Assembly (NCBI GenBank): GCA_043744805.1
Contig: JAYTTZ010000239.1
Coordinates: 1-55,631, forward strand
Source of the DNA: Gammaproteobacteria bacterium
GTDB lineage: Bacteria; Pseudomonadota; Gammaproteobacteria; Ga0077536
Direction: 5' to 3'
DNA length: 55,631 nt
Shown: positions 5,436-46,126 of the stretch, one piece after another
How the letters are laid out: every line of letters starts with the position of its first letter
How positions within the stretch are numbered: position 1 is the stretch's first letter
Made by a program: the position numbers and the translations under genes
Notes under the pieces: model-generated
Seen by the model: only the letters and a program-made list of their open reading frames with translations
Told to the model about the DNA's origin: nothing
Databases searched by the model: none

Positions 5436-5467
5436 GAAGCTCCGGGCGCATCAGCGCAGCAAGTGGA

Positions 5468-11897: not shown

Positions 11898-12731
11898 TCA
11901 GGCGAGGGACCAGTCCACCCAGACCGGCGTGAGGTCCGCAGGCAGCGGCCCAGGTTGCCCGAGGCGCGCGTGATCGTTGTCGCCGCCGTGGAAATCACTG
12001 CCTGCCGAGGCGGCCAGCGCGTAGCGCCGGCAAAGGGCGGCAAGGTCGCGGGTGGTATTGGCAGATTGCCCGCCGCAGGCGACTTCAAGTGCCGTCCCAC
12101 CGGCCGCCTTGAAGTCTTCCACCAGTTCGCGGAGCCGCGAATGCGTGAAGCCGTACTTGGCCGGATGTGCGAGCACTGCAGTGCCGCCATCCGCCGTAAT
12201 CCAGTGTACGGCGTCGGCGAGTCCAGCCCAGGTCGGGTTGCCGCCGCCCGTCGCGTGATCGCCCAACCAGCGGTGGAAGGCATCGTCGATGCTGCGTGCC
12301 TTGCCTTCCGCCACGAGGTAGCGCGCGAAATGGGGTCGTCCCAGCACACCGTCCCCTGCAATGCGCCGGGCACCTTCATACGCGCCTTCGATGCCGCGCT
12401 TGTGGAGGCGCTCGCCGATAGCCTGGCCGCGTTCGTCGCGCAGCCGGCGCTGCCCGAGCACGCCATGCGCAAGCGGGCTGTCGGGCTGGTTGCGCAGGTT
12501 GAGGCCCAGCACATGCACCACCCGTCCGCGCCACTGCGCGGAGAGTTCGATGCCGATGAGGACTTCCATGTTGCTGTCGCGCACGACAGGACGCGCGGTC
12601 GGCAGGGTGTCGTGGTCGGTCACGCAGAAAAGGTCTACTCCGCACCGCGCGGCGCGGGCGCAGAGTTCATCCACCGGCAGCCAGCCATCGGAGGACGTGC
12701 TGTGGGCGTGGAGGTCGACCTTCAGCGCCAT
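11898..12731 (-). CDS. yciV: PHP domain phosphoesterase (YciV/TrpH, RNase AM-like)
   Basis: DLHAHSTSSDG; TDHDT; GIELS; GRPHFAR; LAHP; GSDFHG. Confidence 0.85.
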   Translation of the reverse strand: MALKVDLHAHSTSSDGWLPVDELCARAARCGVDLFCVTDHDTLPTARPVVRDSNMEVLIGIELSAQWRGRVVHVLGLNLRNQPDSPLAHGVLGQRRLRDERGQAIGERLHKRGIEGAYEGARRIAGDGVLGRPHFARYLVAEGKARSIDDAFHRWLGDHATGGGNPTWAGLADAVHWITADGGTAVLAHPAKYGFTHSRLRELVEDFKAAGGTALEVACGGQSANTTRDLAALCRRYALAASAGSDFHGGDNDHARLGQPGPLPADLTPVWVDWSLA

Positions 12732-12735: not shown

Positions 12736-13302
12736 TCACTGCAGGAGCACCCACGCGGCGAGCACGAGGGCGACGGCCGCCATGAAGTACCAGACCCCTA
12801 GCGTGGTCACGGTTTCCCTGGCCTCAGTCTGCACGGGCTGCGTGGAGTCGACTGCCGGCGCCTTTTCAGCGATGAGCGGCTCGAAGCGCTCGAAGAACTC
12901 CCCCGCCAGCTTCCGCGCCGTGCGGTCGATGATGGGGCCGCCCAACTGGCCAAGCTTGCCCCCCACTTCCGCCTTCACTTCGTAATTGAGCAGGGTGCCC
13001 GTGCCGTCTTCTTCCAGATGCACCCGGGCACTGACCTTGGCGTGCCCGACGGGGCCGGCCTTGCCGTCACCCACCAGGGTGTAGGACTCGGGTGGATTCA
13101 GGTCCTCGACTCGCATGTTGCCCGTGAAGCGCGCCGACAGCGGGCCAACCTTGGCGGCCACCGTAGCGACAAAAACGCCGGGTTCCGACTGTTCGAGGTT
13201 TTCACAACCCGGGATCGCCTGCTTGAGGAGTGCCGGGTCGTTCAGTGCCGCGAAGACTTTCTCGCGGCGCGCGTTGATACGGATTTGCTGTTTCAGTTCC
13301 AA
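12736..13302 (-). CDS. coxG: CoxG/SRPBCC family accessory protein with C-terminal TM anchor
   Basis: VFAALNDPALLKQAIPGCE; KVGPLSARFTG; GGKLGQLGG..IDRTA; TTG start. Confidence 0.85.
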   Translation of the reverse strand: MELKQQIRINARREKVFAALNDPALLKQAIPGCENLEQSEPGVFVATVAAKVGPLSARFTGNMRVEDLNPPESYTLVGDGKAGPVGHAKVSARVHLEEDGTGTLLNYEVKAEVGGKLGQLGGPIIDRTARKLAGEFFERFEPLIAEKAPAVDSTQPVQTEARETVTTLGVWYFMAAVALVLAAWVLLQ

Positions 13303-13327
13303 ACGTTGTTTCCCGGGCTCGTCTCGC

Positions 13328-15727
13328 TCAGGCGCGAGCAGCCGTGATTTTTGCCCACAAGGATGACGGCCTCAGCGGCAGTTCGGTGATTTCGATCCCG
13401 AACGGCGCCAGGGCGTCGACGATCGCGTTGCTGAGCGCGCCAGGCACGGAACTCGGCCGTCCTTCGCCGATGCCGCGCGTGCCGAGTGGCGTGTGCGGGC
13501 AGGGCGTGGAGGCGTAGCTGAGTTCGATGTCCGGCACGTCGGCCGCCGTTGCCATCTTGTAGTTCTCGAAGTCAGCGGTCAGCTGCTGGCCTTGCTCGTT
13601 GTAGATGAATTCCTCGAAGACCGTGTTGGACAAGCCCTGCACGATGGCGCCGTGCATCTGGCCGTCCACGATGTTCTGGTTGATCACGTTGCCCACGTCT
13701 TCCGAGGTGGCCCAGCGCTTGATCTTGAAATCGGCGGTGTTGATGTCGACTTCCACGATGCAGAAGTCCGCATTGAAGCAGATCATCGGCTTGGCCGCCT
13801 CGAAGAAGGCCGTCGCCTCGAGTCCACCTACCTCGCCTTCCGGCAGGTTGATCGGGGCCATGATGATGCGTTCGACAATCTCGCGGAAGGATTTGCGCTT
13901 GGCCGGATCCCGCAGGTAGATGACGTCACCGTTGACGAAGGCGAATTCTTCTACGGTCGCCCGCACGTCGAGATCATGGGCAAGGACGTGGGTGATTTTT
14001 TCCTTGAGATCCGCACAGGCCTTGTGCACGGCGCTCACGAAGTACGACCCCGCGCGTGCCCCGATGGTCCCGGCGCCGAAGGGCGTGGTGCCCGTGTCGC
14101 CGGTGGTGACGAGGGAATCCGACGGACTGATGCCGAACGTCGAGGCAACGACCTGCGCCACCGTAGTCTCGTGGCCCTGCCCGCCCGGCGCGTCGCCGCC
14201 AAAAATGAGCACCTTGCCGCGCGGGTCGATGCGCACCGTGGCTGCGCCGTAGCCTGGCTGGTTTTCCATCGGCACGAGGAGTTCGGAGGCCACGCCGGAG
14301 AGTTCGGCCCCGCAGGCGAAGCCGATGCCGATGTAGCGTCCCTGCTCGCGCAGCGCCGCCTGTTCGCGGCGGAAGGCCGGGAGATCGATGTGGGTCATGA
14401 GGTTGTCCCACACCTTGAGGAAGTCGCCGCTGTCGTAGTACTCGCCGGTGACGGTGGTGTAAGGCAGGCGCGGGATCATGTTCTTGCGGCGGACGTCGGA
14501 AGGTTCGAGGCCGCAACGGCGCGCGACCATGTCGACGCTGCGCTCCAGCGCGAAACGGGTGGGAAAATGGCCGAAGGCGCGCGACGGCGTGAGGCAGGCC
14601 TTGTTGGTGCTGGCCACCTTGAGTTTCACGTCACCCTTTTCCCAGGTGTAGACATTGGGCATTTCGACCTGGCCGAGGAACGGCATCACGAAGCCCCAGT
14701 ACACGCCCGTCTGGCCGGTGCCGTTGTTGGCGACGCCGCGGTTGCGCATGGCGATGAGCTTGCCGTCCTGCGTCGCCGCAACGTCCAGATCGTTCACCTG
14801 GTCGCGCTCCTGGCCCACGCTCATCAGGCTTTCGTAGCGCGATTCAATCCAGCGCACCGGCTTGCCGAGCTTGCGCGCGGCGTGGGCGATGACGATGTTC
14901 TCGCGGAAGAACGGCGCCTTCACGCCAAACCCGCCGCCCTGGTCACGCGGCGCGATGACGCGCACTTTCTCGCCGGGAATTTCGAGGATATCGATCAGCG
15001 CCAGTCGATCGATGTGTGGCCGCTGGGTGGTAATCCACGCCGTCAGGCCATCGGCCATGGACCAGTCGCACAGCACGCCGCGCGGTTCCAAGGGCGTGAC
15101 GCCGGTGCGATGGACGCGGAACCGGTTGCTCACCACCACCTCGGCGGACTGGAAGATCGCTTCGACCTCGGCCTCGTTTATCGCCTGTTCCTCCGGCGTC
15201 GCGCCGCCGGTGAAGGTCATGGAAAACATGAGGTTGCCGGGTTGGTCGTCGTGCACCTGCGGCGCGCCGGGTTCGAGTGCCGCTTCGGCGTCGATCACGA
15301 CCGGCAGTTCCTCGTAATCGACCACCACCAGTTCGGCGGCGTCTTCGGCGATGTACTTATCGCGCGCGATCACCACGGCCAGCGGATCACCGTGGTACTT
15401 CACCTTGTCGACCGCCAGGGCCCAGTACTCGGGGAAATTGGCCGGCAGGTTGGGCAGTAATACCGGCTGGAGCATGGACTTCACTTCGCGTTTGAAGTCT
15501 TCGCCCGTCAGCACCGCCATCACCCCGGGCAGTTCCAGCGCCGCGCTGGTGTCGATGCCCAGGATCCTGGCGTGGGCGTATTCGCTGCGCACGAACACCG
15601 CGTGAAGCATCCCCGGCAGCACGATGTCGCCCAGATACTTGCCCTGTCCGGTTACGAGCCGCAGGTCTTCCTTGCGCTCCATGCGTGCGCCCATCCATTC
15701 GGGAGCGTTCTTCTGTGGCGTTTCCAT
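13328..15727 (-). CDS. Xanthine dehydrogenase family Mo-cofactor large subunit (CoxL-like, not a bona fide CODH)
   Basis: RKEDLRLVTGQGKY; RSEYAHARI; GGGFGVK; GQGHETT; GQMHGAIVQGL; RGIGE. Confidence 0.88.
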   Translation of the reverse strand: METPQKNAPEWMGARMERKEDLRLVTGQGKYLGDIVLPGMLHAVFVRSEYAHARILGIDTSAALELPGVMAVLTGEDFKREVKSMLQPVLLPNLPANFPEYWALAVDKVKYHGDPLAVVIARDKYIAEDAAELVVVDYEELPVVIDAEAALEPGAPQVHDDQPGNLMFSMTFTGGATPEEQAINEAEVEAIFQSAEVVVSNRFRVHRTGVTPLEPRGVLCDWSMADGLTAWITTQRPHIDRLALIDILEIPGEKVRVIAPRDQGGGFGVKAPFFRENIVIAHAARKLGKPVRWIESRYESLMSVGQERDQVNDLDVAATQDGKLIAMRNRGVANNGTGQTGVYWGFVMPFLGQVEMPNVYTWEKGDVKLKVASTNKACLTPSRAFGHFPTRFALERSVDMVARRCGLEPSDVRRKNMIPRLPYTTVTGEYYDSGDFLKVWDNLMTHIDLPAFRREQAALREQGRYIGIGFACGAELSGVASELLVPMENQPGYGAATVRIDPRGKVLIFGGDAPGGQGHETTVAQVVASTFGISPSDSLVTTGDTGTTPFGAGTIGARAGSYFVSAVHKACADLKEKITHVLAHDLDVRATVEEFAFVNGDVIYLRDPAKRKSFREIVERIIMAPINLPEGEVGGLEATAFFEAAKPMICFNADFCIVEVDINTADFKIKRWATSEDVGNVINQNIVDGQMHGAIVQGLSNTVFEEFIYNEQGQQLTADFENYKMATAADVPDIELSYASTPCPHTPLGTRGIGEGRPSSVPGALSNAIVDALAPFGIEITELPLRPSSLWAKITAARA

Positions 15728-15736
15728 GGTGTTTCC

Positions 15737-16216
15737 TCAGCCTGCTTCTGCAGCAAGCATCCGCGCCGCCGTGCGTACCGCCCTGACGATATGGACATAG
15801 CCCGTGCAGCGGCAGAGGTTGCCGATGAGGCCCTGGCGGATGTCGTCGTCGCTGGGGTCGGGGTTGTGCTTGAGGAACTCGGTCATGTTCATGAGGATGC
15901 CCGGGGTGCAGAACCCGCACTGCAGCCCATGTTCCTCGCGGAAGGCGCGCTGCAGGGCGCTGAGTTCAGTGCCCCTGGCAAGGCCTTCTACCGTCGTGAT
16001 GTCATGGCCGTCGGCCTGGACCGCCAGCATCATGCAGCTTTTCACCGCTGCGCCGTCGAGAAGGACCGTGCAGGCCCCACACACGCCTTCGTGCGTGCAG
16101 CCGACGTGCGTGCCGGTGAGCGCCAGGCGCTCGCGCAGGAAATCCACCAGCAGCAGGCGCGCCTGGACGGTTTCCTCAAAGACTTCACCGTTGACCTTGA
16201 TGTTGACCGTCGGCAT
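15737..16216 (-). CDS. 2Fe-2S small subunit (CoxS-like)
   Basis: GTHVGCTHEGVCGACTV; KSC; QCGFCTPG; NLCRCTGY. Confidence 0.92.
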   Translation of the reverse strand: MPTVNIKVNGEVFEETVQARLLLVDFLRERLALTGTHVGCTHEGVCGACTVLLDGAAVKSCMMLAVQADGHDITTVEGLARGTELSALQRAFREEHGLQCGFCTPGILMNMTEFLKHNPDPSDDDIRQGLIGNLCRCTGYVHIVRAVRTAARMLAAEAG

Positions 16217-16220
16217 GGAC

Positions 16221-17105
16221 TTACTCCTCGTGGCCCGCGGCGCGGGCAAAGGCGCGGGCTGCCACTTCCTGGCCCAGCGTCCTGATGAGATTGCGGCGAT
16301 AGGCCACGTTGGCCCATTTGTCCGCCTGTGATTCGGCGGCTTCCGCGGCGACGTCGAAAGCCTTGGCAATCGCAGCCGCGTCCCCGGTGCCGCCGATGAG
16401 TGCAGCTTCCGCAGCCGGGGCACGCTGGGCACCGGCCGCGAGGCCCGCCAACGACACCCGCGCCGTGGTGCAGCGTCCCGCCGGGTCCAGGCTCACCGCC
16501 ACGCACACGCCGACCACGGGCAGCGCGTCCTTCACCAGTCCCCACTTCTTGTAGGCACTGCCACCGCGCCCGGCTGGCGCGTTGAAGTGCAGCGCCAGCA
16601 GGATTTCGTCGTCCGCCCGCGCCGTTTCGAGCGGGCCGATGAGGAAGTCTTCCGCCTTGACCTTGCGCGTGGCGCTGGCCGACTGCAGTTCCATTTCAGC
16701 GCCCAGCGCGAGTACCACGGCCGGCAGGCACGACGCCACGTAGTTCCAGCAGCAACTCCCGCCGATCGTGCCGCGATTGCGCACCTGGCGGTCACCGACG
16801 TGGCTCGCGGCATCGCGGAGCGCCGCGTAATGGCCCTTGAGGCGGGTGTCCCCGGCAATGGTCACGTAACGCGTCATCGCGCCCAGGGTGAGCGCGCCGC
16901 CGTCCGGCGCAATCCCGCGCAGCTCGGCAATGGCCTGGAGATCAATGAGGCAGCGCGGTCGCGCCATGCGGGATTTCATGGCCTGCATGAGGCTCTGGCC
17001 GCCGGCGATGAACATGGCATCGCCCGGTTCGTATTGGCCGAGGATGGCAAGTGCGTCCGCAAGCGTGGTGGGCCGGACGTAGTCGTCTATCGGTGCAGGA
17101 AACAT
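16221..17105 (-). CDS. FAD-binding medium subunit (CoxM-like)
   Basis: AGGQSLMQAMKSR; LIDL; IGAM-like LGAMT; QVRNRGTIGGS; AYKK. Confidence 0.9.
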   Translation of the reverse strand: MFPAPIDDYVRPTTLADALAILGQYEPGDAMFIAGGQSLMQAMKSRMARPRCLIDLQAIAELRGIAPDGGALTLGAMTRYVTIAGDTRLKGHYAALRDAASHVGDRQVRNRGTIGGSCCWNYVASCLPAVVLALGAEMELQSASATRKVKAEDFLIGPLETARADDEILLALHFNAPAGRGGSAYKKWGLVKDALPVVGVCVAVSLDPAGRCTTARVSLAGLAAGAQRAPAAEAALIGGTGDAAAIAKAFDVAAEAAESQADKWANVAYRRNLIRTLGQEVAARAFARAAGHEE

Positions 17106-17319
17106 GGCTCCCCCAAAGGACGCCAGGCTGTTCTCAAGCCAGGGCGCCCCATTGCCAGGTGTTGTTCCAGATGCTTTCAGCACCCGGGTAGTGCGGCCGC
17201 GGGGCTTGTCCCTCGTGCAGACCAACCAAGGTGCGGGGGTACCTTACCACTGACAGGCGCAGGACCCGCACCCCCTCCCGACCAAGTGCCTGGACGGCCT
17301 TTCCGGGAGAGGTCTATTT

Positions 17320-17470
17320 ATCAGACGATAATTAATTAGACAAGATTAAAGCACAAGGAAAAAAGATTAAATTCGCTTTTTATAACGAATTAAACCCAAT
17401 TTGAAAGAAAAACAGGCGCAGCCCTTGAAGGCTAATAATCGATCGATTAACTTAATTTCGAAATGTGCCA
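17320..17470. promoter_or_regulatory. AT-rich divergent promoter region with perfect 14-bp palindrome TAATCGATCGATTA (17436-17449)
   Basis: Sharp AT-rich patch in GC-rich DNA between divergent operons. The palindrome reads the same on both strands and lies ~70 bp upstream of the 17521 start. Confidence 0.6.
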
Positions 17471-17520
17471 AATCACGAGGCTGGTGGGCAACCACTGGCC
17501 TCCCGCTCAGGAGCCTTGTA

Positions 17521-18801
17521 ATGGCCACACGTCTGAAAGCGGGTCGTGCGCCCGCCCACCGCCGGGAAAACGACACGCAGGTTCGATTGACTGTCGAGAA
17601 AATGCTCCTCGACATCGAAGCCCGCGGTGACGCCGCGGTGCGCGACTACTCCGCGCAACTTGACCACTGGTCACCCCCATCCTTTCGCCTGGGCAAGGCC
17701 GAAATCCAGCAATGCATCGATGCCCTGCCGCCGCGTACCCTCGACGACATCCGCTTCGCGCAAGCCCAGATCCGGCGCTTCGCCCAGGTGCAATTGATGA
17801 GCCTGCGCGACGTCGAGATTGAAACCATCCCGGGCGTGGTCCTCGGCCACCGGAACATCCCCGTCAATTCAGTGGGGTGCTATGTCCCGGGCGGCAAATA
17901 CCCGATGGTGGCGTCCGCCCACATGAGCGTGCTTACCGCCAAGGTCGCGGGCGTAAAGCGCGTGATCGCCGCGACTCCACCCTTCAACGGCAAGCCGGAA
18001 CCGGCCACCATCGCCGCCATGGCAATGGCCGGGGCGGATGAAATCTACGTGCTCGGTGGCGTCCAGGCGCTGGCGATGATGGCGCTGGGCACCGGCCAGG
18101 TCGCGGCTGTTGACATGTTGGTCGGCCCGGGTAATGCGTACGTCGCAGAAGCCAAGCGCCAGCTCTTCGGCCGCGTCGGCATCGATCTCCTCGCCGGCCC
18201 AACCGAAACCCTGGTCTTATGCGACGACAGCGTCGACGCCGAACTGGTCGCGGTGGACCTCCTGGGCCAGGCCGAACACGGACCGACCTCACCGGCGATC
18301 TGCGTCACCACCTCCCACGCCATCGCCGAAGCCTTGCCGGCCGCAATCGAAGCCGTTCTCGCGCGACTCGACACCGCACCGGTCGCCCGCAGTGCCTGGG
18401 AGGATTACGGGGAAATCATCCTGTGCGAAACGCCGGAAGAAATGCTCTCCGAAGCCGAACGCATCTGCTCCGAGCACGTGCAGGTCATGACCCGGGACCC
18501 GGACTGGTTCCTCCAGCGCATGACCAACTACGGCGCGCTGTTCCTTGGCGCCCGCACCAACGTGGCTTATGGCGACAAGGTCATCGGCACCAACCACACC
18601 CTGCCCACGCAAGGTGCCGGGCGCTATACCGGTGGCTTGTGGGTCGGCAAGTTCATCAAGACCCACACCTACCAGCGCGTGCTGACCGACGCGGCCTCGG
18701 TGGAAATCGGCGAGTACTGCTCGCGCCTGTGCGAGATCGAGCATTTTTCCGGCCACAAGGAACAAGCCGACATCCGCGTGCGCCGCCTCAAGGCACGTTG
18801 A
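17521..18801 (+). CDS. Histidinol dehydrogenase paralog (HisD/HpsN-like family, substrate unknown)
   Basis: GCYVPGG; GGVQA; [12 protein letters not shown]; IDLLAGPTE; DLLGQAEHG; SEH; [16 protein letters not shown] aggag before the ATG at 17521. Confidence 0.8.
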
Positions 18802-18819
18802 CTACAAGGACCTAAACCC

Positions 18820-19665
18820 ATGAGCTACACCTTCATCCCTGGCGCCCGTTACCGCATGCCCTCGCATTTCGGCCCGATGTTCGGCCCGCGTAACCTCCCG
18901 CCCGGAGTCGTCCTGGACCACACGCGTTTCCCGGTTTCGACCGTGGTGACTTACCGATTCCTGTCCACGGTCGATGCGTTGTCGGCACACCTGCCGCCGG
19001 GTTTCGAAGTTGCCGGCGAGCCGGTCGTCTCCATCGACATCGCCTACGTCACCGAAATCCCCTGGCTGGCTGGACGTGGCTACAACCTCGCCCTGGTGTC
19101 GTGGCCCGCGACGTTCCGGGGCACCCGGGACACGGCAACGGGTCGCTTCGCGGCAGTGCTGTTCGAGAGCTTCGCCGATCCCATCCTGACCGGCCGGGAT
19201 GAACTCGGGCATCCCAAGATTTACTGCGAAATCCCGCCGCTGATCGTCTCCGGCAATGACCTCATCGCACGACTGGCCTGGGACGGCTTCGAATTCCTGC
19301 GCGTGTCGGTCAAGGAACTCTCGACGACGAAGCCTGCCTCGGCGGACGATTCCTTTCCCACCGCCGGGTGGCTGCAATGGAAGTACATCCCCGGCACGCC
19401 GCATGGCAATGGACCGGATGCAAGCTACCCCACGCACTCACCGGACCCGCTGGCGGCCGACCTCCATCCCAACGTGACCGTCGACGCGCGCCACTATGGC
19501 GTGGGCACGCTGGTGCGGCGCGAAGCAAGGTGGGAAGACATGCCGACCGTGTGGAACGTGGCGAATGGCATTGCCGCCCTGCCCCACCTGGAACCACGGC
19601 TCGCGGTGGTCACGAAAACCCACGGCTGGATCGGGGACGTCGGCGACACCCGGCGTTTGTACTGA
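18820..19665 (+). CDS. Acetoacetate decarboxylase-like (ADC superfamily) protein
   Basis: YRMPSHFGP N-terminus; LPPGFEVAGEPVV; GRGYN; PILTGRDELGHPKIY (candidate Schiff-base Lys). Confidence 0.8.
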   Translation: MSYTFIPGARYRMPSHFGPMFGPRNLPPGVVLDHTRFPVSTVVTYRFLSTVDALSAHLPPGFEVAGEPVVSIDIAYVTEIPWLAGRGYNLALVSWPATFRGTRDTATGRFAAVLFESFADPILTGRDELGHPKIYCEIPPLIVSGNDLIARLAWDGFEFLRVSVKELSTTKPASADDSFPTAGWLQWKYIPGTPHGNGPDASYPTHSPDPLAADLHPNVTVDARHYGVGTLVRREARWEDMPTVWNVANGIAALPHLEPRLAVVTKTHGWIGDVGDTRRLY

Positions 19666-19673
19666 GTCGCGCC

Positions 19674-20420
19674 ATGGCGACCTCGCTCAACGGGAAAATC
19701 GCCCTGGTCACGGGTGGCGCGGGCGGCATTGGCACCGCCATCTGTCGCCGCCTGGCGGGCGAAGGGGCCACGGTGGTCATCACCTATCAGACGCAACGCG
19801 CACGTGCCGAGGCCTTAATCGAGACACTGCCGGGTACTGGCCACTGGCTTAGCCCGGCGTCAGTCACCGATACGCCGGCGTTGTCGGCGCTGGCCCGCGA
19901 GATTGCCGAACGCCATGGTCGACTGGATATCCTCGTCAACAACGCCGGCGTGAGTCGCGTCGTGCCGCACGCCGATCTCGACGCCCTGGACGATGCCCTG
20001 ATCGACGCCATCTTCAACACCAACTGGCGTGGCGCCTTTGCCTGTGTGCGCGCGTTCCGCAGCCTGCTCGCGAGCCACCACGGGGTGGTGGTCAATATCT
20101 CTTCAATTGCCGGGAATACCGCCGTGGGCAGCAACATCGCCTACTGCGCGAGCAAGGCCGCGATGGATAACATGACCCGCGCCCTGGCCCGCGCCCTGGC
20201 CCCGGCGATCAGGATCCTGTCCATCGCACCCGGTTGGGTGGCCGGCGACTATGCCTCGCGCGCCGATCCCGCCTACCTGCAACTCCAGATTGACCGCACC
20301 CCACTCGGACGCATCGCCACCGCCGAGGACGTTGCCGAAGCCGTGTATGTCGCCTGTACCGGACTCACCTTCACGACGGGTGCCATCATCCCGGTGGATG
20401 GTGGTCGCCCCCTGAATTGA
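19674..20420 (+). CDS. SDR family NAD(P)-dependent oxidoreductase
   Basis: TGGAGGIG; DILVNNAG; NISS; YCASK; IPVDGG. Confidence 0.92.
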   Translation: MATSLNGKIALVTGGAGGIGTAICRRLAGEGATVVITYQTQRARAEALIETLPGTGHWLSPASVTDTPALSALAREIAERHGRLDILVNNAGVSRVVPHADLDALDDALIDAIFNTNWRGAFACVRAFRSLLASHHGVVVNISSIAGNTAVGSNIAYCASKAAMDNMTRALARALAPAIRILSIAPGWVAGDYASRADPAYLQLQIDRTPLGRIATAEDVAEAVYVACTGLTFTTGAIIPVDGGRPLN

Positions 20421-20427
20421 TCACACC

Positions 20428-21105
20428 ATGAAAGATGTCGGCAAGCCCGCGCGGCAGCGCCTGGCCCCGGATGCCCGCCAACAGCAAATCCTGGAAGGCG
20501 CCATCGCCTACTTCGCGGAATTCGGCTTCGAGGGTGGCACGCGAGCCCTGGCCAAGCACCTTGGCATCAGCCAGGCGCTGCTGTTCCGCTATTTTCCCTC
20601 GAAGGCCTCGTTGGTTGATCGCGTCTACGAAGTCGTGTTCCTGCAGCGTTGGGACACGCGATGGAAAGGACTCCTCACCGACCGCAGCGTGCCGCTGGTC
20701 GATCGCCTCAAGTGCTTCTACAAGGACTACAACCGCAGCATCGATCGCTACGAGGTCATTCGAATCTCCCTGTTCTCAGCCTTGCGCCACGAAAGTATCA
20801 GCCAGCGCTACGTCGCACGCCTGCGCGAGCAATTGCTCATCCCGATCGTCATGGAATGCCGCGCGCACCTCGGATTGCCGCTGGCGCCGGGCGAAGGGAT
20901 CCCGGCACTCGAGGAACAATTGATCCTGAGCCTGCACGCAACGGTCATCTACGGGATCATGCGCAAGCACGTCTTCCGCGCCGCGCCGCCGGTCGATAGC
21001 GATTTCCTGATCGAACTCTACGTCGATGCTTTCGTCAGCCATGCCGGCGAAGGCTTTCGTCGCATCCTGGCCCGCAGCGCCACGAGTGCTGGCGTCGCGG
21101 CGTGA
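20428..21105 (+). CDS. TetR/AcrR family transcriptional regulator
   Basis: RQQQILEGAIAYFAEFGFEGGTRALAKHLGISQALLFRYFPSK helix-turn-helix. Confidence 0.92.
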   Translation: MKDVGKPARQRLAPDARQQQILEGAIAYFAEFGFEGGTRALAKHLGISQALLFRYFPSKASLVDRVYEVVFLQRWDTRWKGLLTDRSVPLVDRLKCFYKDYNRSIDRYEVIRISLFSALRHESISQRYVARLREQLLIPIVMECRAHLGLPLAPGEGIPALEEQLILSLHATVIYGIMRKHVFRAAPPVDSDFLIELYVDAFVSHAGEGFRRILARSATSAGVAA

Positions 21106-21205
21106 CGAAGTTCACCCCGGCCAGCAACGGCCGTCGTCCCGTGAACGGGCATACTCATTGGCGTCCCATGGCGGGCGCACCCAGCATCATTCGAGCGAGG
21201 TTGAC

Positions 21206-22120
21206 GTGAACTATTCCATTGAATGCGTGGCTGCCGATTCCAACGAACTTGGCGAAGGCCCGATCTGGGACCAACGCGAGCAAGCCCTCTATTGGGTAGA
21301 CGGCACCGGGCGTCGTGTGGGGCGGCCGTCACTCTGGCGGCTCGACCCGCGCACTGGCGAGAAGCGGAGCTGGTCGCTGCAGCACGACGTGGGCGCCATG
21401 GCGCTGCGTGAATCCGGTGGCGCGGTGCTCGCACTGGACGACGGCTTCTACACGTTTGATTTCGACAGCGAAAAGCTGGAACTCATCACCCACATCGATG
21501 CCAATGAACCCCGCAGCCGCCTTAACGACGGCAAATGCGACCGGCGCGGTCGCTTCCTCGCCGGCGGCATGGATGACAAGGAAGAACTGGGCCTGTGCAG
21601 CCTGTGGCGGCTGGATCCGGACTTCTCCGTGACCCGTCTCGACCAGGGCATCATCTGTTCCAACGGTCCCTGTTTCAGCCCGGACGACCGCACTTTCTAT
21701 TTTGCTGACACTTTCCAGAAAGTGATGTGGGCCTACGATTACGACCTCACCAGCGGCGCGGTAGCCAACCGCCGGCAGTTCGCCGATACCCAGGCGGAAC
21801 GCGGCTTCTTCGACGGCAGCACCGTGGATGCCGAAGGCTGTGTCTGGAATGCACTGGTGATTGGCGGGGAACTCATCCGCTACACGCCGGACGGCGAAGT
21901 GGAACGCCGCATCGGCATGCCCGTGCGCAACATCACGAGCCTGTGCTTCGGCGGACCGCACCTGGATGAACTCTACGTGACGTCAATGGCGCGTGTGCGC
22001 CACCCCGCCGTGCACGCCCATTTTGCCAAGCAAGATAAGCCGCAGTTCGGCGCCGGCAGCCTGTTCCGGATCCGGGGCCTCGGCATCCAGGGTTTGCCCG
22101 AGCCGCGCTTCGCCGGTTGA
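21206..22120 (+). CDS. SMP-30/gluconolactonase/LRE family protein
   Basis: LGEGPIWD; RLNDGKCDRRGRF; SNGPCFSPD; DGSTVDAEG; GTG start after gagg. Confidence 0.9.
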   Translation: MNYSIECVAADSNELGEGPIWDQREQALYWVDGTGRRVGRPSLWRLDPRTGEKRSWSLQHDVGAMALRESGGAVLALDDGFYTFDFDSEKLELITHIDANEPRSRLNDGKCDRRGRFLAGGMDDKEELGLCSLWRLDPDFSVTRLDQGIICSNGPCFSPDDRTFYFADTFQKVMWAYDYDLTSGAVANRRQFADTQAERGFFDGSTVDAEGCVWNALVIGGELIRYTPDGEVERRIGMPVRNITSLCFGGPHLDELYVTSMARVRHPAVHAHFAKQDKPQFGAGSLFRIRGLGIQGLPEPRFAG

Positions 22121-22130
22121 TGGGTTCCCG

Positions 22131-23069
22131 ATGACCGCGCGTTATATGAACGACGTCCTGCCCACCCTGCGCGCCTGGCGCACCGAGGGGCACAGGGCAG
22201 CACTTGCTACGCTGGTATTCGTCGATGGGTCGGCGCCCCGGCCGCGCGGCAGCCAGATGGCCATCCGCGAAGACGGCCTGGCGGTCGGCAACCTCACGGG
22301 CGGCTGTGCAGAAGCTGCCATCATCGACGAGGCCAAGGCGCGGATTGCCGCTGGCACCAACCGACTGCTCCGCTATGGCAAGGATTCGCCCTACATGGAC
22401 ATCCGCCTGCCTTGCGGCTCCGGGATTGACGTCTTCTTCGACGTCACCCTGCCCCTTGCCACCCTCGAACTGATCACCAACGCCAACCGGAACCGCGACG
22501 CGGCCACCCTCGTCATCGATATCGATGCGCGTTCAGCCCGCGCGGTGCATGGCGATCAATTCACCCCGCGGCCAACTGAACGGGCGCGGCTTTGCGAACC
22601 GCCGCCACGCATCCTGGCGGCGGGCAAGGGGCCGCTGGTGCCGCTCATCGCCCAGTTGGGCACGGCTGCGGAATTCGAGGTAATCGTCTGGTCATCCGAA
22701 CCGGAGACTTTGGAAATGGCCCGGCCGCATGCCATCCACGCCCACGCCCTGACCACGCCGGAAGCCTTCCGCTGTGGCAAGCAGGACCGCTGGACCGCCT
22801 TCCTGTCGCTGTTCCATGAACATGCATGGGAACCGCCGCTCCTGCGCGAAGCGCTGGCGTCGGAGTGCTTCTACGTGGGTGCGCTTGGCAGCCGCCGGAC
22901 CGCTGAAGCGCGCCGCACACTGCTGCGCGACGAGGGTGTCGACGAGGTCGACATCGCTCGCATCCACGGCCCGGTGGGACTTGATATCGGGGCGCAAAGC
23001 CCGCCGGAAATAGTGCTCGCGATCCTGGGCCAGATCGTCGCCCAACGTCGCCAACGTAACCCGGCGTGA
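22131..23069 (+). CDS. xdhC: XdhC/CoxI family Mo-cofactor maturation protein
   Basis: GSAPRPRGSQM; GNLTGGCAE; LPCGSG; YVGALGSRR; IHGPVGLDIGAQSPPEI. Confidence 0.9.
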   Translation: MTARYMNDVLPTLRAWRTEGHRAALATLVFVDGSAPRPRGSQMAIREDGLAVGNLTGGCAEAAIIDEAKARIAAGTNRLLRYGKDSPYMDIRLPCGSGIDVFFDVTLPLATLELITNANRNRDAATLVIDIDARSARAVHGDQFTPRPTERARLCEPPPRILAAGKGPLVPLIAQLGTAAEFEVIVWSSEPETLEMARPHAIHAHALTTPEAFRCGKQDRWTAFLSLFHEHAWEPPLLREALASECFYVGALGSRRTAEARRTLLRDEGVDEVDIARIHGPVGLDIGAQSPPEIVLAILGQIVAQRRQRNPA

Positions 23070-23680
23070 GCCAGCGGCTTGCGGCCATCGTGCTGGCCGC
23101 GGGCTTTGGTCGACGCTTCGGTGGCAGCGGCAAGCTCCATGCCCTGCTGGACGGCGAACCCGTGCTCAAGCACAGCCTGCGGGCACTCGCGGGCCTCGCG
23201 CTGCTTGAACGCCTGGTTGTCGTCGCGCCAGGGGACGCCAGTGCCAGCGAACTTGCGTCCGCGTGTGGTGCGCGAACAATCGTAAATCCCGATCGGGCCG
23301 CGGGGCTCGGCAACTCTCTGGCATGCGGCGCACGGGCACTGTCCCCGGATGCCGACGGGGTGATGGTGCTGCTGGGCGACATGCCGCGGATCAGGTCCGC
23401 GACCCTGCAAGCACTGGCGGAACGGTGGCGCGGGCTGGGTCGCAACGACCTGTTGGCGCCCGCCTTCCAGGGACGGCGCGGCCACCCGGTGATTTTCGGA
23501 GCGGATTACTGGCCGGCGCTATGCCAGCTCGAAGGCGAGCAGGGCGCCCGCGATGTCCTCACGACCCATCGCGCAAAACTGGAGTTACTCGCGGTCGATG
23601 ACGCCGGGGTGCTGGTGGATATCGACACCCCGGCGGATCTCGCGGCGGCTGGAGAACCCTCCGACCGCCCGACGGCTTAA
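23066..23680 (+). CDS. mocA: Molybdenum cofactor cytidylyltransferase-like nucleotidyltransferase
   Basis: LAAGFGRRFG..KL; GLGNSL; LGDMP; RGHPVIF; GEQGAR; DIDTPAD. Confidence 0.85.
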   Translation: MSQRLAAIVLAAGFGRRFGGSGKLHALLDGEPVLKHSLRALAGLALLERLVVVAPGDASASELASACGARTIVNPDRAAGLGNSLACGARALSPDADGVMVLLGDMPRIRSATLQALAERWRGLGRNDLLAPAFQGRRGHPVIFGADYWPALCQLEGEQGARDVLTTHRAKLELLAVDDAGVLVDIDTPADLAAAGEPSDRPTA

Positions 23681-24507
23681 GCGGCGCGGCGACGCGTGAC
23701 CTTGCTGGCAGGAGCCTTCCTGGCCACCTTCCGCGTGGTCTTCACGGTGGCCTTTTTCGCCACTGCAGTCGTCTTGCGACGAACCGGCGCGGCGGCGGGC
23801 TTCGCCGCCACCTTGCGGGCGCGGGTTGCCACCTTGGCCGGGCGAGCCGTCGCCTTGGCCTTGGCCTTGGCTTTCCTGGCTGCCGGTTTGGCCGCAGGCG
23901 CGACGGAATCAGTCGAATAGATCTTCCCGCGCTTGCGGCTGGAGGCTTCCGACAAACCGGCCGCCGCAAGCATCGCCATCGCCTCAGTCGAGAATTCAGC
24001 CGACGGTGCGTCGCCCGCAATCACGAACATGAGCGTGGAATAACGAGTCTTCGAGCCCCGCGTCACGTTATGGAAGCGACGGAGCACGCCAGGCGGAAAG
24101 GAAATGACGTCGAGCGGGGCGAGGTCCACCGACTGCACCTTGCCACGCATGTCTTCCCAGCTTGCGCGCCAGGTGCCGTTGATGGCGATGAAGGTTTCGT
24201 TGGTATCGTGGTTATGCATCAGCGGGCCCTTGCCCGGCAGCGCCCGGCAGAAGCCCATGCTGAAGCCTTCGGAAATCTTGATGGCCGTCATGCGCGCAGC
24301 GTGATCGCCTACGGGCGACATCATTGCGCCTTCCTCGATCGCCGGCGGCTGGAAGCCAATCACGTTGTAGAGAATGCGTTCCGATCCCGACAACCGGCTG
24401 TCGGGCAAGCCGCCGTCGGTGCCCTTCACCTTCGAGAAGCGCGCGACGCGTTTCAACATCTCGCGGCGGTTAACCGGCTTGCGTGGAATCTGTTCTTGGT
24501 ATGACAT
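23677..24507 (-). CDS. Cupin domain protein with Lys/Arg/Ala-rich histone-like C-terminal tail
   Basis: PLMHNHDTNETF and DVISFPPGVLRRFHN cupin motifs; tail AAKPAARKAKAKAK...VTRRRAA. Confidence 0.75.
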   Translation of the reverse strand: MSYQEQIPRKPVNRREMLKRVARFSKVKGTDGGLPDSRLSGSERILYNVIGFQPPAIEEGAMMSPVGDHAARMTAIKISEGFSMGFCRALPGKGPLMHNHDTNETFIAINGTWRASWEDMRGKVQSVDLAPLDVISFPPGVLRRFHNVTRGSKTRYSTLMFVIAGDAPSAEFSTEAMAMLAAAGLSEASSRKRGKIYSTDSVAPAAKPAARKAKAKAKATARPAKVATRARKVAAKPAAAPVRRKTTAVAKKATVKTTRKVARKAPASKVTRRRAA

Positions 24508-24637
24508 GCGTTCGTCCCTTCGTTACTGAAGGCGGAAAGTAACGCAAGAGCGCTTGAGCGTATACCGGAAGGACTTCAGCGCCAGGTTTGGCGCCAGGGC
24601 CCGATCCCGTCAAACTCGCCCCGCCATCGAGATTCGA

Positions 24638-26107
24638 ATGACCGACGACACCCCGGATTCCCCGCCGCGCGACGTCCAGATGACTGGTACGCCGGGCCTG
24701 TGGGACTGGCTTGGAACCCAGGGCATCAGCCTCGGCTTCACCACCTACCAGACCAACCGGCTGTTCCTGGTGGGTTGCCATCCCGACGGCCGGCTAGCCG
24801 TGAACGAGCGCCTGTTCGACAAGCCCATGGGCCTCTTCGCCGAAAACGACAAGCTCTACATGGCCTGTCGCTACCAGATATTCCAGTTCGAGAATCGCCT
24901 TGGCGCGGGTGAGCAGCATCACGGCGCGGACCGGCTGTTCGTGCCCAGCACGTCCTGGTTTACCGGCAACCTGAACGTGCACGACGTGGTGATGACCCGC
25001 GACCGACGTCTTGTCTTCATCAACACGGACTTCAGCTGCCTGGCGACGCTCAAACCCGGTTTCAGCTTCGAGCCGCTGTGGCAACCGTCCTTCATCAGCA
25101 AGCTCGTCGCCGAAGATCGCTGCCACCTGAACGGTCTCGCGCTGGAAAACGGCGAGCCCGCCTATGTCACCGCCTGTAGCAGTACCGACGAAGCCGCCGG
25201 CTGGCGCGACCAGCGCAGCAATGGTGGCGTGGCCATCCACCTGCCCAGCAATGGCGTGGTGGCCTCTGGCCTGTCCATGCCGCACTCGCCGCGCGTCTAT
25301 CGCGGCAAGCTGTGGCTGCTGAATTCTGGCACCGGCGAACTCGGCCACGTGACCAACGGACGCTTCCACCCGCTGTGCTTCCTGCCCGGCTTCGTCCGCG
25401 GGCTCGTGCTGTGGCGCGACTTCGCCATTGTCGGGCTGTCGAAGCTACGCTCCAGGACGTTCGCCGGGCTCGAATTGGAACGCCGACTGGAAGCCCAGGG
25501 CCAGACCTCCCGGTGCGGCCTCGCGGTGGTCGATCTCACTACGGGCGCCCTGCTCCACAGCCTGCAGATCGACGGCGTGGTGGAAGAACTCTTCGACGTG
25601 GTGGTACTGCCCGGCGTGCGCCAGCCGCGCGCGGTCGGCTTCCAGGGTGACGACATCGACCGACTCGTGACCTTCCCGGGCTCCAACGGACTCGTCATCA
25701 CCAAACCTACCGTCCAGCGCCCCGGCATCGGCACCACGGGGCATTCGCCGGGGCTGCCGCGCGGCACACCCGAAACAACCCGCCTGTCGGTGAAGTACCA
25801 ACGCGTGTTCCACCTCAATCCCGACAACCTGCTGGACTACGAATCGATGACCTCGCCAAGCCTCGCGACGCGTTGGCCGACGCGAGCGCAGCGGGGAGAA
25901 CTGCTGGGCGTGGCGGCCTCGATCAATGGTGATCTGATTGGCCTGGCCGTAGCCGAGCGCTGGACCGATGAACACGCGCAACCCGCAGCGGAACTCATTT
26001 CCCTGAAAGTGCTGCCCGCCTATCCGGAAGGCCCCATCAGCGAGCGGCTCGTCAAACAACTGGAAGCGCTCGTTGGCCAGGCGCTGGCAGGGCCGCCGCC
26101 CGGGTAA
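24638..26107 (+). CDS. TIGR03032 (DUF4915) family protein with degenerate GNAT-like C-terminal extension
   Basis: FTTYQTNRLF; EDRCHLNGLA; GLSMPHSPR; LLNSGTG; PGFVRGL; ELFDVVVLPGV. Confidence 0.85.
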   Translation: MTDDTPDSPPRDVQMTGTPGLWDWLGTQGISLGFTTYQTNRLFLVGCHPDGRLAVNERLFDKPMGLFAENDKLYMACRYQIFQFENRLGAGEQHHGADRLFVPSTSWFTGNLNVHDVVMTRDRRLVFINTDFSCLATLKPGFSFEPLWQPSFISKLVAEDRCHLNGLALENGEPAYVTACSSTDEAAGWRDQRSNGGVAIHLPSNGVVASGLSMPHSPRVYRGKLWLLNSGTGELGHVTNGRFHPLCFLPGFVRGLVLWRDFAIVGLSKLRSRTFAGLELERRLEAQGQTSRCGLAVVDLTTGALLHSLQIDGVVEELFDVVVLPGVRQPRAVGFQGDDIDRLVTFPGSNGLVITKPTVQRPGIGTTGHSPGLPRGTPETTRLSVKYQRVFHLNPDNLLDYESMTSPSLATRWPTRAQRGELLGVAASINGDLIGLAVAERWTDEHAQPAAELISLKVLPAYPEGPISERLVKQLEALVGQALAGPPPG

Positions 26108-26201
26108 GCTCGATGGGTGCGCAAGGCTGCTACGCGCCAACTGAAATCCCCGGAGTGGCAGGCGCCACCCACCCGTTGCCTGGCCCGGACGGAGTTCCTC
26201 C

Positions 26202-26477
26202 ATGAGTTCGCCCCTGTTCAGCGCCCCGATCGTCAATCCCTTCGGGCTCGACACAGTCAACTCATGGGCAGCACCGTCCTGCGTGGACAGCGACGGCGAT
26301 GGCGATTTTTACGACCGCACCGCCGACGTGGTGTATGGCAACGTCGATACGGATCCAGCGCCTGGGTTCTCCCGCAAGGTGCTGGGACCTGCGACTCTTG
26401 TAATCGGGGACTTCTCCTCTGTGTGGGTGGCGATGCAAGGCTTAGCCACGTCGAAAAGAGAAATTGGCCTGCGCTAG
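26202..26477 (+). pseudogene. Internally deleted relic of an FG-GAP/RTX paralog (N-terminus fused to C-terminus)
   Basis: MSSPLFSAPIVNPFGL...DSDGDGDF matches the start of 35668. YDRTADVVYGNVDTDPAPGFSRKVLG...GDF matches the end of all three paralogs. Confidence 0.8.
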
Positions 26478-26510
26478 ACTCGGGGCCTCCTCACCATCGC
26501 GTAGTACCGC

Positions 26511-30718: not shown

Positions 30719-30957
30719 AACCATGGTCCCTCCTCCTGGGGCACGAGCTTCCTGAACTGTGACCGCGTACTGATTGATCCCTTATATAGGTGCTAGGCTT
30801 ATTTGAAGGCCAGCCAGATCGTGGGGCGGGTACGTCGGAGCTGATTTCCCCGGAAATCCGGGCCTCCGATGGCAACCCGGGCGCAGACCGCTTGCGCATG
30901 CCAGGTCGCGGCAGCCGTGTCCAAGTGTTCTCGCTCAAACAGGATGGGAGATCTGTC

Positions 30958-35364: not shown

Positions 35365-35667
35365 CACGGCTTGCCGAGCCAGCACCATGAAGGCAGACGC
35401 CCACCTTGAACGCCTTCCGTGCTCCTCGTTGGTGGCGCAGCATGGTGGGATGGCGCCTGGATGCGAGACGCGTGTCGCAATTACGTAGCGCCCACCCTGT
35501 GGACATCGTTCAAACTGCCGATGTCCTCATGATGATGGGCGATGGCCTCCTGCGAGTCGCGCGCGATACGAGCGTCCCTCCCTCGGTCGCTGCCGCGTCC
35601 TGACAACCGGCCACGGCCTCGCGCTTCAAGACGAGCATTGCGTTAAGCACGACCCAGGAGTACCCGA

Positions 35668-41463: not shown

Positions 41464-41596
41464 AGCCGGGTACGGCCCCCTTCTCCGGCGTGGGAGTTGA
41501 TCAGCACTGCGGCTTCTTGATTGTTGCATTGCCGCATTCGAAGGCTACACTCCAGGGTACCCACCCACCCGCCACCCGCGCGAGGAGGCGAACCGC

Positions 41597-42142: not shown

Positions 42143-42146
42143 ACGC

Positions 42147-46092: not shown

Positions 46093-46126
46093 TTGGTCTG
46101 CCCTTTGGTGTTTTCCTGCATGGATT

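Follow-up and report, generated by a model that had tools for sequence, protein, structure and literature searches.

The stretch of DNA considered here, the window, is a 55,631-nucleotide contig (JAYTTZ010000239.1) with a G+C content of 65%, which was sequenced as part of a sediment metagenome and comes from an uncultured sediment bacterium assigned to the Gammaproteobacteria. Between positions 12736 and 23680 it carries two divergent gene arms, one encoding a molybdenum (Mo) dehydrogenase of the CoxLMS type with a CoxG-like partner, and the other a paralogue of the histidinol dehydrogenase HisD followed by several further enzymes, a regulator, and two proteins of Mo cofactor maturation. Genes were called from a listing of open reading frames (ORFs) combined with Pfam and NCBIfam profile scans, and the products were compared with the PDB by sequence search. 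The features of the locus are given below from left to right, with the strand in parentheses.

12736-13302 (-): coxG-like gene, SRPBCC protein with a C-terminal membrane helix (Pfam COXG, 1e-28)
13328-15727 (-): coxL-like gene, large subunit carrying molybdopterin cytosine dinucleotide (MCD) (Pfam Ald_Xan_dh_C, the hammerhead domain, and MoCoBD_1/2)
15737-16216 (-): coxS-like gene, small subunit with two [2Fe-2S] clusters (Pfam Fer2_2, 2e-30, and Fer2)
16221-17105 (-): coxM-like gene, FAD-binding medium subunit of the xanthine dehydrogenase (XDH)/CoxLMS family (Pfam FAD_binding_5, 7e-43, and CO_deh_flav_C)
17318-17331 (no strand): operator-like palindrome A, TTATCAGACGATAA, matching TWATC-N4-GATWA
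17436-17449 (no strand): operator-like palindrome B, TAATCGATCGATTA, matching TWATC-N4-GATWA, 72 bp upstream of the HisD-like start
17521-18801 (+): HpsN-like HisD paralogue, a Zn- and NAD+-dependent dehydrogenase of the four-electron, alcohol-to-acid type (Pfam Histidinol_dh, 8e-131)
18820-19665 (+): 3CMB-like protein of the acetoacetate decarboxylase (ADC) superfamily, putatively a Schiff-base beta-keto-acid decarboxylase or an aldolase-type enzyme (PF06314, 1e-19)
19674-20420 (+): classical short-chain dehydrogenase/reductase (SDR) (Pfam adh_short)
20428-21105 (+): TetR-family regulator (Pfam TetR_N, 6e-12)
21206-22120 (+): SMP-30/gluconolactonase-family (SGL) lactonase (PF08450, 6e-81)
22131-23069 (+): XdhC-family chaperone of Mo cofactor insertion (Pfam XdhC_CoxI and XdhC_C)
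23066-23680 (+): MocA-like molybdenum cofactor cytidylyltransferase (Pfam NTP_transf_3, 1e-36)
23677-24507 (-): possible accessory cupin, weakly matched (Pfam Cupin_2) and convergent with mocA

An earlier note, made from the sequence alone, had named eleven genes from coxG to mocA; Pfam and NCBIfam place all eleven where it had put them, and its outer limits of 12736 and 23680 are right. The HisD-like gene was moved from a TTG start at 17401 to the ATG at 17521, and the starts of the coxS, SDR, and SGL genes were also refined, coxS being matched to a 159-residue orthologue in a related locus (L001). Within each arm the genes lie -4 to 25 nt apart, the sole exception being the 103 nt between the TetR and SGL genes. 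The xdhC and mocA genes, which serve the minus-strand enzyme, sit in the plus-strand arm, where xdhC begins 10 nt after the SGL gene and overlaps mocA by 4 nt.

The coxM and HisD-like genes are separated by 415 bp, and the proposal that the two arms diverge from a common AT-rich region is borne out by a 160-bp core (17310-17470) that is 68% A+T, compared with 35% window-wide, and that holds the most AT-rich 150 bp of the 55.6 kb. Two boxes conserved upstream of the HisD-like gene across related loci both reduce to the 5-4-5 palindrome TWATC-N4-GATWA. This 14-bp pattern occurs twice in the window, both times in the 415-bp gap (0.03 occurrences expected, and none of 100 shuffles reached two), and once each in 9 of 88 loci, where it invariably sits at the matching place in front of the HisD-like gene and nowhere else; in relatives, the conserved box TAATAATCGATCGCTCA occupies the position of palindrome B. 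The TetR-family protein, whose gene is kept within the cluster in 18 loci, combines a TetR_N helix-turn-helix with these inverted repeats in its own promoter region, the arrangement that sequence would predict for a TetR repressor and its operator. The pair of palindromes is thus a likely candidate for a TetR operator in a divergent promoter, and it is the best available sequence evidence for a common regulator of both arms. A simple sigma-70 scan of the coxM/HisD-like gap returned no promoter, and terminator and sigma-70 scans gave nothing useful at the cluster edges or in the intergenic region.

The description of the gene at 17521-18801 as HisD-like is correct as to the fold, but the protein is specifically an HpsN-like paralogue of a distinct subfamily, and its conserved partner is the SDR rather than the ADC-like gene. 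Its best characterized relative in the PDB is HpsN (8V35, 4e-112), the 3-dehydrogenase of sulfopropanediol (2,3-dihydroxypropane-1-sulfonate, DHPS), with true HisD at 1e-73, and it is 47% identical to the HpsN of Cupriavidus pinatubonensis (CpHpsN). The generic TIGR00069 domain model is passed, and PF00815 is matched with both the Zn ligands and the catalytic Glu-His pair in place. In the HisD fold, Zn is held by the Gln and His of GQAEH, an Asp, and a His from the partner chain; the segments LGQAEH, CSEH, GDKV, and GTNHT, and with them the Zn ligands, the Glu-His and Asp-Lys pairs, and other catalytic residues, are kept in 120 of the 120 closest homologues (at least 77% identity).

What sets these proteins apart is a diagnostic loop, which reads G-R-Y-A/S-H in HpsN, where His126 binds the sulfonate, and G-S-A-P-L in HisD (PMC11382572). 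The loop in the window protein reads G-K-Y-P-M, with Met replacing HpsN His126, and G-K-Y-P-M/L is found in 119 of the 120 homologues, the remaining one having G-K-D-P-M; the sulfonate-specific His is therefore Met or Leu in every one of them. True HpsN orthologues at 55% identity, by comparison, keep identical substrate-binding residues (PMC12814064). An assignment as HpsN was ruled out because G-R-Y-A/S-H is absent, and one as HisD proper because G-S-A-P-L is absent and the PRK13770 score is 226 bits against a cut-off of 647. With a motif that belongs to neither, the protein falls into a third subfamily, which is 77-88% identical across Gamma- and Betaproteobacteria and Gemmatimonadota; the window protein is 78-82% identical to those of Pseudomonas citronellolis, P. 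putida, Burkholderia multivorans, Paraburkholderia, Massilia, Rudaea, and Gemmatimonadota. Members of the subfamily are annotated as "histidinol dehydrogenase" or "sulfopropanediol 3-dehydrogenase".

An orthologous SDR (54-68% identity) directly follows the HisD-like gene in seven of nine other contexts, which include Pseudomonas, Burkholderia, Rudaea, Massilia, and metagenome-assembled genomes (MAGs); the exceptions are a Gemmatimonas locus (L088) and locus L089. In a Pseudomonas citronellolis-like genome, Burkholderia multivorans, Rudaea, and Massilia putida (L086, L087, L090, and L091), an enzyme of the fumarylacetoacetate hydrolase (FAH) family (FAA_hydro_N_2 plus FAA_hydrolase) directly follows the SDR, where it takes the place of the ADC-like gene of the window, and on a metagenome scaffold (L093) its gene is a few kb distant. 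Members of the FAH family work on beta-dicarbonyl and 2-oxo acids, and their position supports a logic of keto-acid formation by the SDR followed by cleavage of a C-C bond by the next enzyme. The SDR and the keto-acid C-C-cleaving enzyme, whether ADC-like or FAH-type, come and go together (both are missing from L089), and a lactonase-family protein is present in most HisD-like contexts, which points to a module running from lactonase to HisD-like enzyme to SDR to keto-acid decarboxylase or hydrolase. ADC paralogues in Chloroflexota also adjoin SDRs.

The contexts with an FAH-type enzyme also contain a DenD-like dehydrogenase of the 3-beta-hydroxysteroid dehydrogenase family and an SGL-family protein of another subfamily. 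Genes for an FAD monooxygenase, a glyoxalase of the extradiol type, an S9-type hydrolase, and a small Rieske protein are usual there too, and not one of the accompanying proteins reaches an NCBIfam equivalog cut-off. The same recurrent cluster holds an ABM or CMD protein, a CrtO-like FAD protein, an MFS protein, and OprB or DUF1302/DUF1329/BNR/MMPL uptake genes. It is apparently uncharacterized, and a link to the oxidative catabolism of the lignan pinoresinol in Pseudomonas SG-MS2 is possible. Two large genomes, L092 and L094 (1-6600), have a further two CoxL-like genes at a distance of 3-10 kb from the HisD-like-SDR pair. These share 34% identity with the CoxL of the window (one of those in L092 is split into ORFs of 222 and 560 residues), and genes for a Baeyer-Villiger monooxygenase, an Amidohydro_2 protein, an alpha/beta-hydrolase, and a cupin are nearby; these are further cases of recurrent proximity between Mo enzymes and the HisD-like subfamily.

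In the minus-strand arm, the three-subunit architecture of the CoxLMS type is complete, with the hammerhead and two MoCo-binding domains in L, two [2Fe-2S] domains in S, and the FAD domain in M. PDB matches range from 8e-137 to 5e-117, those of CoxL being best to 8UEM, 1T3Q, and 1N5W. The catalytic Glu is kept, GTRGIGEGRP aligning with GAKGVGES and GIKGMGES, in which the equivalents are Glu763 (OcCoxL) and Glu743 (quinoline 2-oxidoreductase, Qor); the CoxL of the window has GIGEG where Qor has GMGES. The active-site loop, TNKACLTPSRAFGHF (also given as ACLTPSRAFGHF), has neither the Cys of the form I loop AYRCSFR nor its insertion of two residues, and it aligns best with Qor and with 6-hydroxypseudooxynicotine dehydrogenase (Kdh). 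An assignment as form I carbon monoxide dehydrogenase (CODH) was rejected on account of the missing Cu-binding Cys loop (AYxCSFR) and an NCBIfam CODH score of 501 bits, where the cut-off is 991. With the named NCBIfam equivalogs (CODH, glyceraldehyde dehydrogenase, XDH, and 4-hydroxybenzoyl-CoA reductase), all scores are about half of the cut-offs, and the CoxL homologues with at least 72% identity all belong to uncultured Gammaproteobacteria and carry generic names only.

The CoxG-like protein has an N-terminal SRPBCC domain and a hydrophobic C-terminus, LGVWYFMAAVALVLAAWVLLQ. Mo-CODH is coupled to the respiratory chain by CoxG, which extracts quinone (PMC12202499), and CoxG-like proteins can anchor other dehydrogenases (PMC11962113); by analogy, the protein encoded here is a probable quinone shuttle or membrane anchor. 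The best NCBIfam match of the MocA-like protein is TIGR03310 (MocA/YgfJ) at 127 bits, below the cut-off of 186.

The only PDB sequence match of the ADC-like protein is 3CMB, which is uncharacterized and 26% identical. Its AlphaFold model (pLDDT 80, pTM 0.82) gave 24 Foldseek matches at E <= 0.001, all of them ADC-superfamily chains, so that the beta-cone fold of ADC can be assigned. Lys133 (in GHPK) and Glu116 are invariant in 20 ADC-like orthologues and align with PK and WE of 3CMB, a pattern consistent with Schiff-base chemistry; Lys133 may be the counterpart of the Schiff-base Lys, K115, of CaADC, the BLAST alignment being ambiguous. Orthologues (at least 57% identity) are confined to uncultured bacteria of lakes and sediments, classed as Gammaproteobacteria or Pseudomonadota. 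The contexts of paralogues at 41-47% identity (LysR beside a divergent DUF4865-ADC pair in Alphaproteobacteria, GD_AH-ADC-PhyH in L005, and ADC followed by an enzyme of beta-keto acid cleavage, BKACE, in L055 and L064) proved uninformative as a guide to the function of this orthologue. In the SMP-30-like protein, PF08450 is matched at positions 1-245 of 246, as one would expect of a full-length six-bladed propeller of that family, and the best PDB matches are regucalcin (2e-43) and 7PLB (2e-40).

All window proteins were mapped by tblastn onto 85 loci. The HisD-ADC-SDR-TetR genes stay together wherever the contig allows, with the SGL gene either after TetR or before the HisD-like gene. A search for the HisD paralogue, ADC-like, and CoxMSL combination, which the earlier note had put forward as a check, finds both arms together in 12 related loci (L001, L002, L006, L007, L009-L014, L017, and L020), where divergent coxM/S/L genes lie beside the HisD arm and the coxM orthologues adjoining the HisD-like gene are 63-77% identical. 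The xdhC gene is present in nine loci and mocA in eight, neither of them in any locus shown to be without coxMSL; the loci with xdhC either carry coxMSL or are too short to tell. The view of the whole as a single locus is supported by the recurrence of the arrangement in the 12 relatives, by the operator, and by the embedded xdhC/mocA, but it does not hold in the strict sense, since the arms are usually and not obligately linked.

The functional link between the arms rests on three stronger arguments: the embedding of xdhC and mocA in the HisD arm, the common operator, and the gene order in L089. There, an orthologous coxG-L-S-M set (65, 78, 73, and 63% identity) adjoins only the HisD-like (83%) and SGL (82%) genes, the latter directly after the former, an arrangement that ties together the Mo enzyme, the lactonase, and the HisD paralogue.

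We propose, at a probability of roughly 40%, that this is a TetR-repressed divergent catabolic locus for a small, oxygen-rich compound of the sugar, lactol, or lactone type. The proposal draws on direct observations, namely the identity of the genes, catalytic residues that are retained, synteny that is conserved, the operator motif, and the missing CODH and HpsN signatures. How the steps are ordered, a lactone as intermediate, the part played by the carboxylate, and the type of substrate are what we infer, in a scheme of five steps. The cytoplasmic CoxLMS-type Mo(MCD) dehydrogenase, matured by XdhC and MocA, would first act on an aldehyde or cyclic hemiacetal (or perhaps a ring C-H beside a heteroatom), oxidizing it to a lactone or acid, and would pass the electrons to respiratory quinone through CoxG. 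The SMP-30 lactonase would then open the lactone to a carboxylate with a terminal CH2OH, and the HpsN-like HisD paralogue, its Zn site binding the hydroxy acid with a carboxylate in place of the sulfonate of DHPS, would carry out the four-electron oxidation of CH2OH to COO-. In the fourth step, the partner SDR would oxidize a secondary hydroxyl, and the ADC-like enzyme may finally decarboxylate the resulting beta-keto or 2-oxo acid, or cleave it by retro-aldol reaction, using its conserved Lys. Induction would come about when the substrate, or an intermediate, frees the two palindromic operators of TetR.

The rationale for an HpsN-like enzyme without the sulfonate His would be one of spacing, as an opened gamma-lactone, HOCH2-C-C-COO-, is spaced like DHPS, HOCH2-C-C-SO3-. 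The chemistry would suit, as candidate substrates, lactones of the 3,4- or 2,4-dihydroxybutyrate type, lactones of the tetronate or deoxy-aldonate kind, and pantolactone/pantoate.

Several observations count against this scheme and should be kept in mind. The most divergent branch of relatives (L003/L004, L021, and L022, with ADC-like proteins at 57-59% identity) has the order coxG|HisD-ADC-SDR-TetR-SGL and is without coxMSL, xdhC, and mocA, and in the 6.3-Mb genome of L094 over 10 kb of one chromosome separates a 75%-identical CoxL orthologue from an 80%-identical HisD-like-SDR pair; together these indicate that the Mo step is not essential to the core. In L089, which is without the SDR and the ADC-like gene, the fourth and fifth steps are dispensable. 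The relatives also share flanks of unrelated genes, PHP on the left and GNAT, luciferase-like, and NYN on the right, so part of the co-occurrence is inherited gene order and the loci are weakened as independent evidence. The ADC-like protein is structurally about equidistant from true decarboxylases (CvADC), MppR, and the aldolase-dehydratases Sbi00515 and Swit_4259, and decarboxylation is for that reason not established; the CoxL loop resembles the N-heterocycle hydroxylases Qor and Kdh at least as much as it does aldehyde oxidoreductases. Finally, a transporter, kinase, or dehydratase, which would suggest a sugar as substrate, is missing from the locus, and none of the RNA runs searched for the locus sequence contain it.

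Much the same enzymes could serve a heteroaromatic route, though we think this unlikely. CoxLMS would hydroxylate a pyridine-, pyrone-, or furan-type ring beside the heteroatom, the HisD paralogue would oxidize a ring hydroxymethyl group to the carboxylate, the SDR and SGL proteins would handle the lactol or lactone of neighbouring substituents as in vitamin B6 catabolism, and the ADC-like protein would remove a carboxyl. The alignment of the CoxL loop with Qor and Kdh and its missing CODH insertion agree with such a route, as do the aromatic-type genes that surround the HisD-like-SDR pair in Pseudomonas, Burkholderia, Rudaea, and Massilia (the FAD monooxygenase, of group A and nearest HpxO/NicC, the extradiol-type glyoxalase, and the Rieske protein), the Met/Leu at the end of the HisD-like motif, which resembles true HisD with its imidazole-bearing substrate, and the CoxG homologues that accompany 3-hydroxypyridine dehydrogenase (cited in PMC11962113). 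However, neither a ring-cleavage dioxygenase nor an amidase or deaminase is encoded in the locus, the weak cupin being the sole candidate; Schiff-base ADC chemistry is unsuited to aromatic carboxylates; and the lineage without coxMSL keeps the whole HisD arm. The Burkholderia monooxygenase is not specifically MHPCO-like either (67 bits, compared with 95 bits for HpxO), and a vitamin B6-type pathway approached through that cluster was found to be unsupported, the enzyme being nearer to HpxO and NicC than to MHPCO.

Somewhat less probable again is that the two arms are independent neighbours, with coxMSLG and xdhC/mocA forming an unrelated respiratory Mo dehydrogenase, HisD-ADC-SDR-TetR-SGL being self-sufficient, and the adjacency reflecting gene order inherited in one clade. 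The branch that keeps the HisD arm without coxMSL, xdhC, and mocA, the distant CoxL orthologue of L094, and the shared backbone flanks would all follow from this, and the cultured bacteria with the HisD-like-SDR pair have no nearby CoxLMS orthologue. Independence nevertheless fits poorly with xdhC and mocA being embedded in the HisD arm at such close spacing and never occurring without coxMSL in any informative locus, or with a rare palindrome that occurs twice in the shared intergenic region. It also leaves aside L089, which keeps coxMSLG|HisD-SGL having lost or never had ADC-SDR-TetR, and coxG, which remains beside the HisD arm even in loci where coxMSL is missing.

Catabolism of an organosulfonate of the DHPS or sulfolactate type, in which the HisD paralogue would be a true HpsN, the SDR HpsO-like, and the remaining enzymes would process sulfolactate or sulfolactaldehyde, is highly improbable and was rejected, for although HpsN is the closest characterized homologue, JGI names many homologues sulfopropanediol 3-dehydrogenase, and the HisD-like/SDR adjacency mirrors hpsN-hpsO (PMC11382572), the His126 motif that true HpsN orthologues keep at far lower identity is missing from all 120 closest homologues, and Pfam and NCBIfam scans of the window found no sulfolyase (SuyAB, Xsc, CuyA), sulfite exporter, or sulfite dehydrogenase.

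The proposed lactone or lactol pathway can be taken a step further, to a generalization that we regard as doubtful but worth stating. The G-K-Y-P-M/L proteins might be a third functional class of the HisD fold, namely omega-hydroxy-carboxylate (4-hydroxy-acid)-to-dicarboxylate dehydrogenases whose Zn ligand is a carboxylate instead of the sulfonate or imidazole. Joined by the partner SDR and an enzyme that cleaves keto acids (ADC-like or FAH-type), they would make up a widespread, undescribed gamma-lactone/deoxy-aldonate module, which in sediment and freshwater Gammaproteobacteria would be wired to the respiratory chain through a new lactone-generating CoxLMS-CoxG dehydrogenase. If this were so, genes still missing for orphan activities, the oxidation of pantoate or dihydroxybutyrate among them, might be found in the module.

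The boundaries of the cluster deserve some care. An extension to the left through the PHP, CoA-transferase, MMPL, GST, and BKACE genes was rejected as core because relatives conserve these only sporadically. The PHP-domain protein (11898-12731, minus strand) resembles the 3',5'-nucleoside bisphosphate (pAp) phosphatase/RNase RNM (PDB 7UG9 and 2YB1); its gene lies 4 nt downstream of coxG, is kept there in five related loci, and is probably a housekeeping gene co-transcribed with the cox arm. The MMPL protein (8023-10644, minus strand) is a hopanoid transporter of the HpnN type (TIGR03480, 831 bits against a cut-off of 752), which suggests that the organism makes hopanoids. The BKACE (6375-7250, minus strand) scores 488 bits, above the NCBIfam cut-off of 430, with the equivalog for 3,5-dioxohexanoate:acetyl-CoA acetone transferase, which belongs to cleavage of the triacetate/phloroglucinol type. 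It is the only BKACE in the window, lies five genes from the cluster, and is not kept beside it in relatives. In two alphaproteobacterial MAGs (L055, from 10912, and L064, from 10948), a 66-68%-identical BKACE directly follows a 43-44%-identical ADC-like paralogue, and this hints at a link between ADC-like proteins and BKACE in beta-keto-acid metabolism. Farther to the left, a 1210-residue ORF (1818-5450, minus strand) has as its sole match a weak Pyr_redox_2 in mid-protein.

On the right, the cupin at 23677-24507, which overlaps mocA by 4 nt, carries a Lys/Ala-rich, histone-H1-like C-terminal tail of about 90 residues; PDB and NCBIfam searches with it gave no match. The gene is kept at the right-hand cluster edge in eight related loci, including some without xdhC/mocA. 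Positions 24554-41463 form an insertion of about 17 kb relative to related genomes, which encodes a DUF4915 protein and three FG-GAP/RTX repeat proteins (702, 1524, and 1938 residues). Homologues of the genes at 41501-49836 (GNAT, luciferase-like, NYN, and acyl-CoA dehydrogenase) stand just past the right end of the cluster in L001/L002, L012, L017, and L020, and in L001/L002, L017, and L020 they follow the cupin directly.

The locus joins two subfamilies without a characterized member, the HpsN-like HisD paralogue and the 3CMB-type ADC-superfamily protein, to a non-CODH CoxLMS enzyme that is one of a large pool of "CO dehydrogenase-like" genes without a known substrate. Identification of the substrate would correct a widespread mis-annotation (hundreds of homologues at 77-88% identity in Pseudomonas, Burkholderia, Massilia, Gemmatimonadota, and lake and sediment MAGs), would assign a function to a CoxL clade common in uncultured Gammaproteobacteria, and would probably bring to light a new way in which a small oxygenated carbon source is oxidized in the carbon cycle of fresh waters and sediments. 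To find the inducer, one could use the predicted operator and TetR as a biosensor scaffold. We see the main value of the locus in this mislabelled, widespread HisD-like subfamily, the orphan CoxL clade, and the testable pairing of operator and repressor.

Literature searches for this enzyme combination found none, and no core protein meets a full-length NCBIfam equivalog cut-off, all of them having been scanned; the locus therefore appears to be undescribed. The overall logic has a precedent all the same in the oxidative catabolism of deoxyribose, and two other routes offer leads. Pantoate degradation runs from lactone to hydroxy acid, through alcohol-to-acid oxidation, to the oxidative decarboxylation of a substituted malate, and to our knowledge the genes of the bacterial route are orphan. 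In furoate degradation, a Mo hydroxylase creates a lactone that is then hydrolysed, whereas the hydroxymethylfurfural (HMF) route needs a CoA ligase and a UbiD/UbiX decarboxylase, both of which the locus is without.

Among individual enzyme systems, the CoxLMS/Qor branch (8UEM, 1N5W, 1T3Q, and Kdh 7DQX) shares the L/M/S architecture, the catalytic Glu, the CoxG partner, and XdhC plus MocA with the Mo enzyme of the window, from which the Cys-containing AYRCSFR loop of CO dehydrogenase is missing. The ADC superfamily (CaADC/CvADC, MppR, Sbi00515, Swit_4259, and 3CMB) shares the fold (Foldseek probability 1.0) and probably the Lys in G-x-P-K with its upstream Glu, but no member of the orthologous group of the window protein bears a functional name. 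With HpsN and hpsNOP of C. pinatubonensis (8V35, PMC11382572), the locus has in common the Zn ligands, the Glu-His and Asp-Lys pairs, and an adjacent SDR gene; it differs in having neither hpsP nor a sulfolyase and in the Met/Leu that stands for the sulfonate-binding His. The enzymes of the Novosphingobium pinoresinol pathway differ from those of the Pseudomonas/Burkholderia HisD-like cluster.

The partial precedent that qualifies the earlier note, which recognized no characterized pathway in this combination, is the oxidative deoxyribose catabolism of Pseudomonas simiae WCS417 (PMC6365646). There, an XDH-family, MCD-type Mo dehydrogenase, dependent on Mo-cofactor nucleotidylation, oxidizes deoxyribose to a lactone, and a lactonase and an SDR lead to a beta-keto acid that undergoes C-C cleavage (PMC6365646). 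The locus was not assigned to this pathway, since its Mo enzyme is a cytoplasmic CoxLMS with CoxG and not a periplasmic IorAB type with cytochrome c, and since the cleavage enzyme in P. simiae is a BKACE, encoded in an operon together with the SDR and the lactonase, a gene found outside the cluster here, where an ADC-superfamily protein holds that position; the P. simiae route is also without a four-electron dehydrogenase of the HisD/HpsN type. What the two have in common, going by the published description of the pathway, is the set of a Mo dehydrogenase, a lactonase, an SDR, and a C-C-cleaving enzyme.

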